From positions 1 through 38,043 of IMG/VR virus record IMGVR_UViG_2537561603_000006: DNA of 38,043 nt; one strand, 5' to 3'. The position numbers were made by a program, and so were the translations under genes. The notes beneath the pieces were generated by a model. That model worked only from the letters and a program-made list of their open reading frames with translations. It had not been told where the DNA came from and ran no database searches. Below, one piece after another: positions 29,402 to 31,760 of the stretch; position 1 is the stretch's first letter; each line of letters starts with the position of its first letter. This stretch comes from a virus (taxonomy: Duplodnaviria; Heunggongvirae; Uroviricota; Caudoviricetes).

Positions 29402-29498
29402 ACGCCCTCCAAACTAAGTTTTATTAGATGCTAATTACAAATCTATCTTTGGTCAATAAAAACTAAGATTACTTAGCAATTCAAGAAATGGTGCTCCT
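29402..29498. promoter_or_regulatory. Divergent promoter/operator region between cro and cI
   Basis: AT-rich 97 bp with repeated CTAAG/CTTAG half-sites: CTAAGTTTTATTAG (29414-29427) and CTAAGATTACTTAG (29463-29476). Confidence 0.5.
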
Positions 29499-30125
29499 AT
29501 GGAAACGGTTGGTCAGCGTATAAAAGCTCTGAGAAGAGTTACCAGAACGTCCCAGAAAGAATTGGGTAAATTTTGTGGAGTAAGCGACGTTGCTGTGGGG
29601 TACTGGGAGAAAGACATCAATACCCCTGGTGGGGAGGCACTTTCGAAATTAGCGAAGTTCTTCAATACGTCAATAGATTACATTCTTTATGGTGCTGAGT
29701 TTGAAGGCAAACTCGTCACAAACATGCGCAGAGTTCCTGTAATATCGTGGGTTCAGGCTGGGCAGTTTACTGAGTGCAGGGCAGCAGAAGTGTTTAGTGA
29801 AGTGGACAAGTGGGTAGATACATCATTAAAGATTGGTGATAACTCATTTGCATTAGAGGTTAAAGGTGACTCCATGGCTAACCCTAATGGCCTCCCAACA
29901 ATACCAGAAGGCGCAACAGTGATTGTAGATCCAGATGCAGAACCTCGTCATGGAAAAATAGTCATCGCTCGACTTGATGGAACAAACGAAGCTACAGTAA
30001 AAAAATTAGTCATCGATGGCCCTCAAAAGTTTTTAGTGCCATTAAATCCTCGGTATCCCAACATCCCTATCAATGGTAATTGCCTTATCATTGGTGTAGT
30101 CAAAGGAGTTCAATACGAACTCTAA
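29499..30125 (+). CDS. CI-like repressor (N-terminal HTH, C-terminal S24 LexA-like peptidase domain)
   Basis: 208 aa; N-terminal HTH (QKELGKFCGVSDVAVGYWEKD); C-terminal ...ALEVKGDSMANPNGLPTIPEGATVIVDPD... with Ser-Lys dyad context. Confidence 0.85.
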   Translation: METVGQRIKALRRVTRTSQKELGKFCGVSDVAVGYWEKDINTPGGEALSKLAKFFNTSIDYILYGAEFEGKLVTNMRRVPVISWVQAGQFTECRAAEVFSEVDKWVDTSLKIGDNSFALEVKGDSMANPNGLPTIPEGATVIVDPDAEPRHGKIVIARLDGTNEATVKKLVIDGPQKFLVPLNPRYPNIPINGNCLIIGVVKGVQYEL

Positions 30126-30309
30126 GACCTCTCTTCTCTAACTAAGGCACCGAACTAAGAAAAGTTTGGTGTTTTCTCTTGCCATAACAACTAAGTTAAG
30201 TTAGATTTTATGTCAAAGATAACGAACAGGCAGGACGCCCACGAAGTAGCCGCCGGTGGCGTATGAATGACCGGATGATTCGTTAAATACTATGTGTAAG
30301 AGAGCGCAA

Positions 30310-30513
30310 ATGAACCGTTATCTCACATGCTCGTTTTGTGGCGCAAACGAGCTGCAGGCAAAAAAAATCATCGCCAAAGGCGGAAAAGATGAAGTTGCTA
30401 TCTGCTCTGAGTGCGTAGTCTTGTGTGTCGGAGCATTAATCAATATCAGCACAACTATTCAGTTCACACCAAATGAGAATGCGCCTTTAGATGCGCGGAA
30501 ATCTGGAGGTTAA
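30310..30513 (+). CDS. ClpX N-terminal zinc-binding-domain-like small protein
   Basis: LTCSFCGANELQAKKIIAKGGKDEVAICSECVVLC has the CxxC-x20-CxxC pattern and flanking residues of the ClpX zinc-binding domain ([32 protein letters not shown], recalled); start at 30310 preferred over 30292. Confidence 0.55.
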   Translation: MNRYLTCSFCGANELQAKKIIAKGGKDEVAICSECVVLCVGALINISTTIQFTPNENAPLDARKSGG

Positions 30514-30521
30514 AGAACAAA

Positions 30522-30797
30522 ATGAAAGTCCAGATTTTAAACAATAGTGGTGAAGTCGTTTGGTCATACGACATAGCCGCTCCTGTAGATCAGAGCGGCG
30601 ATAGCTGGACCAATGGGAAACATCAGATTATGGCTGGAGTTGTATTCTCTTTACGCCGTGCTTTGGAACAGGCTGAAGTATTTCCATCAGACCCTGAATG
30701 GAAATGGCCTTTTTCTATTTGTCCAAATTCGGAGAGCACATTTCAGAAAATTGGTCAGAAAGTCGCACTCGAAGAGCATCAGCCAACTGTTTTCTGA
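30522..30797 (+). CDS. Hypothetical protein (rex-position cargo)
   Basis: 91 aa; GGAGG Shine-Dalgarno 8 nt before the ATG; 3' end overlaps a convergent ORF. Confidence 0.45.
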   Translation: MKVQILNNSGEVVWSYDIAAPVDQSGDSWTNGKHQIMAGVVFSLRRALEQAEVFPSDPEWKWPFSICPNSESTFQKIGQKVALEEHQPTVF

Positions 30798-30960
30798 TTT
30801 TTTCAGGTAACTCGTCGGCATCGCAGAAACAACAACGCTCGATCATGTTGAAAGCCGATTCGTAGAACTGTTTCTGCTGAGTGTCGCTGAGACAGGAAAA
30901 GAGCGACGTTACGATGATTTTATTAATTGCATTATCAAGTTCTTTTTCATCAAAAGTCAT
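30715..30960 (-). CDS. Hypothetical protein (convergent to the rex-position genes)
   Basis: 81 aa; strong Shine-Dalgarno AAGGAAAA before ATG at 30960; Cys cluster ERCCFCDADE. Confidence 0.45.
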   Translation of the reverse strand: MTFDEKELDNAINKIIVTSLFSCLSDTQQKQFYESAFNMIERCCFCDADELPEKIRKQLADALRVRLSDQFSEMCSPNLDK

Positions 30961-31380
30961 TTGATTTTCCTTTTATGTATACGGGCTTAAAAGGATACCA
31001 CCGAGCCTGAAGTGGTGAAAAGACAGGCACATAACAGCTAAGTATTTTCAACCAGAGAGAATCCTTAGCGTTGTGGTGAATGCGGCTCAGCGCACGCGGG
31101 TTAAGGTTGAGGCTGACAGTCGACCTTCTGTGGATACCCACCCGTCTGGTGTGCAACCTTCGCCAGGCACCGGGAGGCACCCGGCACCACAACTTTATGC
31201 TGTGTGTAGTCTTGGCGGTACCAGTTTGTACCCTTGCTTCCGGCTGGTACCGCTCTTTTTACAAAACAGAGAAGAGCATCACCGGACGACGGGCTCATAA
31301 CCCAATCCATCCGGGCGGCTGCCACCGCAGGTGTTCTTCTCTGTTTTGTGGAGAAACCAACCGACCTTGCAGGGTCGATA

Positions 31381-31760
31381 TGATGAGGAGCAGCAAAATG
31401 GCTAGCGAACGCAGTACTGATGTGCAGGCATTTATCGGGGAGCTGGACGGCGGCGTATTTGAAACCAAAATCGGCGCAGTTCTCAGTGAAGTCGCTTCCG
31501 GTGTGATGAACACGAAAACCAAAGGTAAGGTCTCGCTCAACCTGGAAATCGAACCGTTTGATGAGAACCGTGTGAAAATAAAACATAAACTCTCATATGT
31601 TCGCCCGACTAACCGCGGGAAAATTTCCGAAGAAGACACCACCGAAACGCCGATGTATGTCAATCGCGGTGGTCGCCTGACTATTCTGCAGGAAGACCAG
31701 GGACAATTACTGACTCTTGCCGGTGAACCTGACGGAAAACTCCGCGCAGCAGGTCATTAA
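31381..31760 (+). CDS. YfdP-like hypothetical protein
   Basis: About 126 aa from MMRSSKMASERST...; the track's longer ORF (from 31080) is a read-through of the GC-rich leader; followed by yfdQ/yfdR-like genes. Confidence 0.5.

Follow-up and report, generated by a model that had tools for sequence, protein, structure and literature searches.

A probable small RNA gene of the STnc100/PasD/sRNA-17 superfamily and an initiator-tRNA-like leader fold upstream of yfdP in an SfV-like prophage

Three small RNAs (sRNAs) described in separate studies provide the closest known counterparts of the locus analyzed here, the gap between positions 30961 and 31397 of a 38,043-nucleotide (nt) tailed-phage sequence (IMG/VR record IMGVR_UViG_2537561603_000006, positions 1 to 38,043, hereafter the window). 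PasD1 of enteropathogenic Escherichia coli (EPEC) E2348/69 is a 173-nt transcript, confirmed by Northern blotting, that is Hfq-dependent and has many partners in data from RIL-seq, in which interacting RNAs are ligated and sequenced (PMC8550237), and the link between PasD and STnc100 (RF02076) has already been made by Zhu, Shabalina and Storz (bioRxiv 2026). The third, sRNA-17 of E. coli K1 RS218, was determined to be 193 nt long by 5' and 3' rapid amplification of cDNA ends (RACE) and Northern blotting, and is encoded in an mEp460-like prophage; the same paper reported no Rfam homologue and listed genomes that carry only the terminator part as 'degenerative sRNA-17' (Front Microbiol 2020, PMC7719688). 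The gap in the window is non-coding and contains two conserved RNA structures on the plus strand. We propose, with a probability of about 0.75, that it comprises a prophage sRNA gene and the structured 5' leader of the yfdP-yfdQ-yfdR...xis-int operon, acting through the mechanism outlined below; the narrower claim that positions 31070-31260 are an sRNA gene of the STnc100/PasD/sRNA-17 superfamily is slightly firmer and, in our judgment, likely to be correct, whereas our confidence in what is proposed for its targets, for promoter control and for module 2 is much lower. A preliminary description of this DNA, made from its letters alone, had noted a GC-rich structured region with a hairpin, a boxA-like string and a long-range helix, and had offered an antitermination element of the nut or put type, a regulatory leader, or an sRNA as possible explanations.

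An Rfam scan of the whole window at gathering thresholds assigned no family, but a permissive scan, which completes the Rfam check advised in that description, placed STnc100 at 31040-31262 over the full length of the model (positions 1-206 of 206), with 44.3 bits and an E value of 3.5e-8. Homologues of the element in ST64B, sal3, phiES15, phage P1 and SJ46 score between 33 and 42 bits with the same model. The features typical of STnc100, namely a GGUG/CACC closing helix, a series of hairpins, the P5 hairpin ACCGGGAGGCACCCGG and a 3' terminator, are all present in the window, as judged from the alignment to the model, the pair counts and a comparison with 93 unique cores of viral contigs. The window element shares with STnc100, PasD1 and PasD2 (EcOnc13) the GGUG/CACC ends of helix P1, the AAU junction, the CUNNGCG loop of P2, a P4 loop that is pseudoknotted to the strand after P2, and, past P5 (which is ACCGGGAGGCACCCGG in STnc100), a linker and an intrinsic terminator. 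The Hfq-dependent PasD RNAs carry their seed in a linker at the place equivalent to that of the window linker. PasD1 in particular starts at the 5' base of helix P1 and is preceded by a promoter of the form TTGACT-N17-TTAAAA. Its P2, P4 and pseudoknot (AAUGAUC/GAUCAUU) are the same, and its seed, UGUGAG, is in the linker between core and terminator. The window copy differs in its P2 (GCGGCUCAGCGCA) and in an extra P3 helix. Like STnc100, it belongs to a phage or prophage of Gammaproteobacteria; however, STnc100 and PasD are usually encoded among the late genes, close to those for holin and lysis and downstream of Q or stx2, whereas the window copy heads the yfdP...int operon.

The closest relative is sRNA-17, which lies on the same strand and takes the same place in a prophage of the SfV/mEp460 type, with the immunity region on one side and yfdP on the other; alignment of the window with mEp460 and Stx2a_WGPS2 confirms this location directly upstream of yfdP and on its strand. 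The two RNAs have the same first helix (GUUGUGGUG...CACCACAAC), terminators that differ by a single loop base (GGCGGUACCAG...CUGGUACCGCUCUUUU) and similar lengths (193 versus about 190 nt), in a comparison that rests on the primers given in the paper (5' end CGTTGTGGTGAATGCG..., read as CGTTGTGGTGAATGCGCAGG..., and 3' end ...CTTCCGGCTGGTACCGCTCTTTT; PMC7719688) and on the mEp460 sequence. The 3' end of sRNA-17 maps to the terminator of the window. Identity does not extend over the full 193 nt, which is the BLAST criterion of that paper, but is confined to helix P1 and to the terminator and the sequence beyond it; mEp460-type phages match the window from 31212 on only. In between, P2 and the internal hairpins differ, P5 reads CCGG-AGAUCAGCA-CCGG instead of CCGGG-AGGCA-CCCGG, and the linker is shorter and unlike that of the window (AGCCACUGCUUU), so the targets probably differ as well. 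The paper reports no pseudoknot and does not describe the second structure of the gap (module 2, below), and the expression and ArcA control that it documents concern the RS218 variant only. Homology and synteny with PasD1, STnc100 and sRNA-17 lead us to regard the window locus as a probable variant of a known sRNA locus, extending from 31070 to about 31260. Among the explanations first offered, the sRNA is supported by the STnc100 match, the locus, helix and terminator of sRNA-17, and the architecture of PasD1.

Other prophage RNAs were considered and set aside. DicF (RF00039) is also a prophage sRNA, its terminator region resembles the 3' part of the window RNA (UUGGCGGUA(C/U)CAGUUU), and in phage P1 a dicF-like region occurs in the ban operon together with a copy of the core; nevertheless, the DicF model reaches only 19.1 bits (E 0.19, threshold 48) at 31201-31255, and DicF is a 53-nt RNA cut from a polycistronic transcript, with no structured 5' domain. 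PasB, an 83-nt RNA of prophage PP6, was rejected on the basis of its unrelated probe sequence, and svsR (an sRNA of the NC-SV prophage) and HnrS were rejected as different RNAs encoded at other positions. The paper on ST64B of Salmonella D23580/4/74 reports no sRNA at this locus.

The putative sRNA is about 190 nt long and begins with a pseudoknotted domain of 124 nt, which is followed by a conserved linker of 20 unpaired nt and then by an intrinsic terminator. The preliminary description was right that the region is structured: the 371-nt stretch folds with a free energy of -157.9 kcal/mol, compared with -120.4 +/- 5.3 for shuffled sequences (z = -7.0), and none of 100 shuffles was as stable. 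It had placed the main structure in the terminator and the long helix, however, and overlooked the largest part, the domain at 31070-31193. The folding and covariation analysis that it recommended shows that both folds of the gap are kept in other phages with compensatory changes. For the family as a whole, we scanned viral contigs with two conserved strings, each of which detected at least 120 loci; the resulting set contained 148 unique cores of 72-146 nt. Homologues of the core are found in ST64B, phiES15, phage P1, SJ46 and many viral contigs, and its loops are invariant across the viral-contig family. Several genomes contain more than one copy: seven viral contigs each carry two or three STnc100-type cores, arranged in arrays of different variants, with several pairs exactly 484 nt apart.

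Covariation was measured on an alignment of 21 core sequences, with base pairs counted for helices P1, P2 and P5 alone. In these helices 97.6% of the positions are paired and six pairs change on both sides, giving a covariation score of 0.251 versus 0.127 +/- 0.013 for shuffles (0 of 500 as high); sliding the partner strands out of register lowers the pairing to 26-50%. Helix P1 illustrates the compensation, since the window pairing is replaced by GUUGCGGUG/CACCGCAAC in phage P1 and by AUUGUGGUG/CACCACAAU in phiES15, and in some relatives helix P5 reads CCUGG/CCAGG. MAFFT alignment of full cores misplaces P3, P4 and the pseudoknot, and the pseudoknot was therefore tested sequence by sequence. 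In 82 of 120 unique cores, the P4 loop can form at least six uninterrupted Watson-Crick pairs with the strand upstream of it that follows P2/P3, versus 6% after shuffling of the loop and 9% when loops were swapped between members. The best matches comprise 52 distinct strand pairs, more than 25 of them at least 6 nt long (for example AAGGCUG/CAGCCUU, UGGUUAU/AUAACCA, CAGUUAA/UUAACUG and CCAGUC/GACUGG). This pairing is not present in the structure line of the Rfam STnc100 consensus, and the shared core of STnc100, PasD and sRNA-17 as a pseudoknotted domain that goes beyond this consensus might be unexpected to specialists.

Three observations assign the structures to the plus strand: the U tract of the terminator lies on this strand; the helices of both folds contain G-U pairs, which would read as A-C on the other strand; and the RACE-mapped ends of sRNA-17, in the yfdP-oriented mEp460 alignment, correspond to the yfdP (plus) strand. 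Translation of the region was considered as an alternative. A small or frameshifted gene might be supposed from the annotation, given that PGAP/RefSeq calls positions 31073-31383 a pseudogene ('frameshifted hypothetical protein'), the reading frame of yfdP extends without a stop back to 31080 (226 aa), a 75-aa open reading frame (ORF) spans 31073-31300, and SfIVp34, one coding sequence (CDS) of Kati and one of sal3 are annotated with upstream extensions of yfdP. Divergence between the window and ST64B nonetheless shows no codon periodicity in the leader. Substitutions there are spread evenly over the three codon positions (28/28/28), in contrast to 27/34/81 within yfdP; the leader indels measure 1, 1, 20 and 1 nt; and the ST64B leader contains stop codons in all three frames. 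The 75-aa ORF has no PHROG and no Pfam match, and the translations are rich in Arg, Pro and Gly, as GC-rich RNA helices would give. Because of the codon-position, indel and stop-codon results, a coding gene has almost no chance of being the explanation, and the earlier view that the gap contains no convincing ORF holds, as no conserved ORF is found between 30960 and yfdP. The boundaries given at the time need one correction: the end of the upstream gene at 30960 stands, but the annotated start codon of yfdP is at 31398 rather than 31381. The RefSeq frameshifted CDS (31073-31383) and the yfdP extensions (to 31080-31760) are probably annotation artefacts of GC-rich RNA helices.

Between the core and the terminator lies the single-stranded linker UUUAUGCUGUGUGUAGUCUU, which the centroid fold computed for the sRNA leaves unpaired. 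Its motif, GC(U/A)GUGUG(U/A)AGUC, is kept directly 5' of at least ten unrelated terminator stems. The 5' domains that precede the motif likewise vary, and one of them is a minimal variant without most of the core. Because the motif is retained in both of these contexts, and by analogy with PasD, we consider the linker a candidate seed for base pairing. The minimal variant was observed in a single viral contig, where the 5' strand of helix P1 and P2 (GUUGUGGUGAAUGCGGCUCAGCGCGC) are followed by the linker motif (GCAGUGUGUAGUC) and a terminator, most of the core having been lost; this arrangement suggests that the seed-terminator end may be able to work with a reduced body.

If the linker had no partners, the terminator could be the sole selected function of the locus, as a cis-acting insulator or attenuator that silences yfdP...xis-int in the lysogen and yields the short RNA as a by-product. 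Such an insulator would agree with the near absence of reads for yfdP and yfdR in wild-type RS218 and their strong rise when the sRNA-17 region is replaced; for yfdP, replacement by a chloramphenicol (Cm) cassette raised the reads from 0.5 to 47, or about 96-fold (PMC7719688). It would also fit the retention of the terminator and module 2 before different first genes, and a search for sites complementary to the linker, confined to the window, found none. Yet a terminator alone requires neither a covarying, pseudoknotted domain of 124 nt nor a linker motif that is preserved before at least ten unrelated terminators, and PasD, through the equivalent linker, has many RIL-seq partners. According to its primers, moreover, the sRNA-17 mutant retains the terminator hairpin, and lost termination is therefore not an obvious cause of the rise in yfdP. 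We regard a purely insulating function as unlikely.

The terminator itself is the hairpin that the preliminary description had recognized (CGGTACCAG), with the arms GGCGGUACCAG and CUGGUACCGCU followed by CUUUUU, and both sequence and folds agree with its reading as a hairpin with a terminator U tract. The stems differ in ST64B, phiES15 and Flotzy while the structure is kept, and a terminator-like hairpin accompanies 68 of 102 distinct family instances, with the U run beginning 33-97 nt past the core. The resemblance to boxA that had been noted at the same place, in contrast, is at the level of chance. The 'GCU' of the proposed boxA lies inside the 3' stem of the terminator and the remainder is the U tract; without a gap, the site differs from GCTCTTTAACAA by more than three mismatches, whereas four other places in the window match within two. 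GCTCTT occurs 13 times on the plus strand of the window, and in homologues GACC, GCCC or GCAC replace GCUC while the hairpin and U tract are maintained, so that a boxA consensus of the lambda type (CGCUCUUA / GCUCUUUAACAA) is not conserved among them.

These results bear directly on whether the element could be a cis-acting antiterminator RNA, similar to put or nut, that modifies RNA polymerase to read through the terminator at 31214-60 and later ones in place of N. The general resemblance to HK022 putL/putR and lambda nutL is clear, in that all are RNA rather than protein elements and are encoded close to where an early operon of a temperate phage begins, with terminators just downstream. The element heads the early-left operon in phages without an annotated N gene, such as SfV, ST64B and the lambdoid phiES15 (before kil-gam); a terminator that must be passed on induction lies immediately downstream; the core loops are invariant, as would be expected for the binding of a conserved macromolecule; and the copy in phage P1 and SJ46 lies within an operon and lacks a terminator. 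The annotations of SfV, ST64B and the window prophage list no N gene, although no search for one was made. The specific comparison is far less favorable. The HK022 put sites comprise about 70 nt and two stems (PMC9378689), unlike the 124-nt multi-helix domain with its pseudoknot, and the two elements differ in size, fold, sequence and model: the HK022 immunity region and the window share no Rfam match, and BLAST returned only chance matches of 10-14 nt. As for nutL, the boxA-like string of the window is a part of the terminator and is not conserved, and no boxB/N pair was identified. Two thirds of the family are compact units with their own terminator, relatives accumulate as discrete sRNAs that are bound by Hfq or visible on Northern blots, and many copies are arranged in tandem or follow Q, settings that are ill-suited to a leader antiterminator. 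Antitermination of the nut or put type, as first suggested, is therefore quite improbable for this self-contained unit.

The copy in phage P1 (2502-2625 of the stretch examined) and SJ46 lies inside the ban operon, between the tRNA-Asn/Thr genes and tciA, with no terminator of its own, and for this copy a role in antitermination is conceivable; in phage P1 this operon also includes an annotated 'dicF-like region' and tRNA-Ile(CAU).

Downstream of the terminator, the leader of yfdP forms a second conserved structure, module 2, a three-way fold with a perfect 20-bp outer stem. This stem is the long-range helix of the preliminary description, which is borne out with coordinates shifted by about 1-2 nt. 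The 19-nt loop of hairpin A (ACGGGCUCAUAACCCAAUC) contains GGGCUCAUAACCC (31291-31303). This is the very sequence that forms the anticodon stem-loop in the initiator tRNA of E. coli, with three G-C pairs and the loop CUCAUAA; alignment with E. coli K-12 metZ gives CG(U/A)CGGGCUCAUAACCC(G/A)A, with 17 of 20 bases matching when the flanks are included. A scan for the 21-nt loop motif detected at least 120 viral contigs and 24 species genomes representing about 17 genera by title, all of them Enterobacterales except for one assembly labelled Chryseobacterium; the genera include Escherichia, Shigella, Citrobacter, Enterobacter, Kosakonia, Klebsiella, Raoultella, Leclercia, Phytobacter, Mixta, Pantoea and Erwinia. 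We selected 27 divergent representatives from the viral contigs, and 22 divergent sequences entered the pair counts. In this fold 93.4% of the cells are paired and both partners have changed in nine of the pairs; its covariation was not equalled in any of 500 shuffles. On the plus strand, Rfam contains no credible family match to module 2, and a limited literature search found no published description of it.

Two types of module 2 can be distinguished. Type I, the window form, has the long outer stem and in every case directly adjoins a terminator's U tract. Downstream of it an operon begins, the first gene of which is yfdP-like in 58 of 78 distinct cases and otherwise yfdR-like, rdgC-like or xis. 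In type I copies the sequence directly past the long stem, GGAGAAA (31350-31356), is conserved; pairing of this sequence with CUCU and the U tract of the terminator is possible and would extend the helix beyond 25 bp in read-through transcripts. Type II, which occurs downstream of Q, has an outer stem of 6-7 bp followed by NCCA. Only a few bases separate it from the final gene of a phage tRNA cluster, with tRNA-Arg or tRNA-Thr genes directly upstream. In Pantoea phage PA-1 (about 1490-1620 of the stretch examined) the order seen in the window is reversed, with module 2 first and the start of a core (GUUGUGGUGAAU...) immediately after it. As read from such arrangements, the two RNA modules appear to travel together and to be shuffled in order.

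The position of type II copies directly past tRNA-Arg or tRNA-Thr genes, their NCCA ends and the copied anticodon arm of the initiator tRNA raise the question of whether the gap contains functionless relics of phage tRNAs. Module 2 would then be what is left of a tRNA-Met gene, and the core would be a tRNA-like remnant of tRNA islands of the lambdoid or P1-like kind. The core copy in the tRNA-rich ban operon of phage P1 would agree with such an origin, as would the predicted stacking of P5 on helix P1, which recalls that of a T arm on an acceptor stem. However, neither ARAGORN nor the Rfam tRNA model (RF00005) recognizes either element: ARAGORN reports no tRNA in the window or at the type II copies beside real tRNAs, and RF00005 also fails at type II copies. 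In addition, both folds have undergone compensatory changes while their long loops stayed invariant over about 17 genera, which would not be expected of pseudogenes. The conserved parts, namely the 20-bp stem, hairpin B and the loop of 19 nt, are those that do not belong to a tRNA. Decay of this kind is very improbable as an explanation.

Messenger RNA leaders that mimic tRNAs are known, the thrS operator being an example, and the leader of lambda N contains an RNase III site. Module 2 resembles both in combining a copy of an anticodon arm within a 5' leader with a long perfect stem in an early-left leader. It differs from leaders of the thrS type in that it mimics the initiator tRNA, in that the gene downstream is not a synthetase and varies, and in that its apex is also found as a tRNA-like unit after tRNA genes. 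Most likely, although this is the least certain step of our proposal, module 2 serves in the processing and/or stabilization of the operon mRNA or in the release of a small tRNA-like RNA; both types could release the same apex, through RNase III in the case of the 20-bp stem or through tRNA-processing enzymes. A more specific version, in which module 2 is a functional RNA in its own right, is released from early or late transcripts and acts in trans, imitating the anticodon stem-loop of the initiator tRNA so as to bind or divert a factor that recognizes tRNAfMet, thereby protecting against a defence that targets tRNA or tuning initiation, is tentative and in our estimate rather doubtful. Candidate partners would be anticodon-loop nucleases, such as enteric VapC toxins, which cut initiator tRNA, as well as MetRS, IF3 and the 30S P site. 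The option of a regulatory leader is supported in part, in the sense that a conserved 5' leader does extend from the terminator to the start of yfdP.

The proposed mechanism can be summarized as follows. Transcription is predicted to start a short distance upstream of 31070 and would produce, in order, the 124-nt pseudoknotted domain, the 20-nt unpaired stretch and the strong intrinsic terminator. Transcripts that stop there would be the sRNA of about 190 nt, in which the structured 5' domain probably serves, by analogy with PasD, as a stabilizing or protein-binding body, while the linker beside the terminator would serve as a seed that, together with Hfq, pairs with mRNAs from other loci. A further effect of the terminator, in the lysogen, would be to bar transcription from the downstream operon with xis and int at its end. 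Read-through transcripts would carry module 2, whose 20-bp stem, extended by pairing of the U tract with GGAG, looks like a substrate for RNase III, and whose apex would display the initiator-tRNA anticodon loop.

The promoter is predicted to lie in the region just upstream of the core. The block of homology common to SfIV, Kati, PhiR49 and others begins at about 30998, and in five phages (window, sal3, mEp460, SfIV and Kati) the upstream neighbour is a different minus-strand gene, which places the likely sRNA promoter within about 70-110 nt of helix P1. For the same reason, this promoter is probably also the sole promoter of the yfdP operon, by read-through. By eye, weak candidates are AAGACA (31020-25) N17 TATTTT (31043-48) and a -10-like GAGAAT (31057-62) with a start at about 31069-70. 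The string CATAACAGCTAAGT (31030-43) repeats, in 13 of 14 positions, the left part of a CI operator-like site. Two such repeats (AACTAAG-N-TTAG) are located on the plus strand at 30153-30214, directly past the cI stop codon, where they overlap a promoter-like TTGCCA-N17-TAGATT (30179-30207) about 850 bp upstream of the sRNA, and the same repeats occur twice in the gap between cI and cro (29412-29477); the site at 30153-30214 looks like a repressor-controlled promoter of the leftward operon.

Several results weigh against the proposal of an sRNA gene with a structured leader. A scan for the sigma-70 consensus (at least 9 of 12 matches) found no site on the plus strand upstream of the sRNA, and the STnc100 score of the window stays below the gathering score of 47 bits. 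The interior of the window core differs from that of sRNA-17, which would place it in the 'degenerative' class by the terms of that paper; the transcript ends in the window are derived from homology with sRNA-17, whose RACE 5' end could itself be a processing site instead of a start; and the increase in yfdP in the sRNA-17 mutant may be an artefact of the cassette. The folding z-score of the sRNA alone is modest and strand-blind (-1.8 for the plus strand, -2.2 for the other). To these are added the empty search for linker targets in the window and the terminator-less copy inside the ban operon of phage P1 and SJ46, because of which not every family member can be a free-standing sRNA. Finally, an induced phage must get past the terminator at 31214-60, and our proposal offers no route for this.

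The window represents a prophage of the SfV/ST64B-like type in E. coli. A query of 551 nt around the locus has 100% identical copies in many E. coli chromosomes; it was matched in 2864 of 5426 complete E. coli genomes, of which 1361 hold most of the query. Shigella phage SfV is 98.7% identical over the 551 bases, and weaker matches were obtained in ST64B, sal3, phiES15, P1-like phages and Klebsiella phages. The features of the locus and its neighbours are collected in Table 1.

Table 1. Positions of the RNA elements in the gap upstream of yfdP and of the neighbouring genes in the window
Feature	Position	Strand	Remarks
Candidate promoter region	30998-31069	+	Upstream part of the mobile sRNA module
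Structured 5' domain (STnc100-superfamily core)	31070-31193	+	Rfam match, covariation
Helix P1	31070-78/31185-93	+	GUUGUGGUG/CACCACAAC
AAU junction	31079-81	+	
Helix P2	31081-84/31091-94	+	Loop CUNNGCG
Helix P3	31097-100/31141-44	+	
Pseudoknot	31103-09/31154-60	+	AAGGUUG with CAACCUU (P4 loop), inside core
Helix P4	31145-51/31161-67	+	
Helix P5	31170-74/31180-84	+	CCGGG-AGGCA-CCCGG, stacked on helix P1
Single-stranded linker (candidate seed)	31194-31213	+	Centroid fold of sRNA
Rho-independent terminator	31214-31260	+	Stem 31214-24/31244-54, C, U5 (31256-60); folds
Module 2	31261-31349	+	yfdP leader; three-way fold
Module 2 outer stem	31261-80/31330-49	+	20 bp, perfect
Hairpin A	31282-88/31308-14	+	19-nt loop
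Hairpin B	31315-28	+	
Small hairpin	31362-66/31373-77	+	Sequence, fold; different but equivalent hairpin in ST64B
Shine-Dalgarno GAGGAG	31385-90	+	Before the yfdP ATG
cro		-	Start of local gene order
cI	29499-30125	+	
Small ORFs	between cI and the ORF at 30715-30960		
ORF	30715-30960	-	Upstream neighbour of the gap
yfdP	ATG 31398	+	RefSeq start; then yfdQ, yfdR and, further on, xis and int

Among the small ORFs between cI and the gap, a 73-aa ORF at 30292-30513 on the plus strand has a C4 zinc finger of the ClpX type (Pfam PF06689, E 5.6e-11; phrog_5259), and its product might interact with substrates or adaptors of ClpX. The ORFs at 30522-30797 (plus strand) and 30715-30960 (minus strand) are convergent and overlap by 83 nt; they belong, at full length, to the PHROG families phrog_3195 and phrog_3311, the former strand being annotated in SfV and the latter in RefSeq, and their joint expression from the proposed promoters would not be easy. 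In ST64B, the sb41 region on the minus strand of the locus (21-97 of the stretch examined) contains isrK (RF01394) above threshold, with 64.3 bits, and no equivalent was detected in the window at Rfam gathering thresholds. In the cryptic prophage CPS-53 of E. coli K-12, the sRNA and module 2 have been lost, and the last ~25 nt before yfdP, with the Shine-Dalgarno sequence and start, are the only part of the leader that has been kept.

For annotation, the consequence is immediate: the stretch is found in about half of the complete E. coli genomes searched, where it is called a frameshifted pseudogene or an N-terminal extension of YfdP, and its assignment to RNA would correct thousands of annotations. 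STnc100, PasD and sRNA-17, which have been treated in three separate literatures, appear to form a single structural superfamily, in which the pseudoknotted body is common to all and the seed-terminator ends can be exchanged, a view that provides a frame for predicting targets from the linker. The position of the sRNA terminator between the promoter and an operon that ends in xis and int probably helps to silence the excision genes, and how an induced phage of the N-less SfV/ST64B type passes this terminator becomes a testable question. The initiator-tRNA-like module, present in about 17 genera (nearly all of them Enterobacterales) and represented by no Rfam family, would be a new kind of phage RNA element if it proves to be a decoy or a processing signal.

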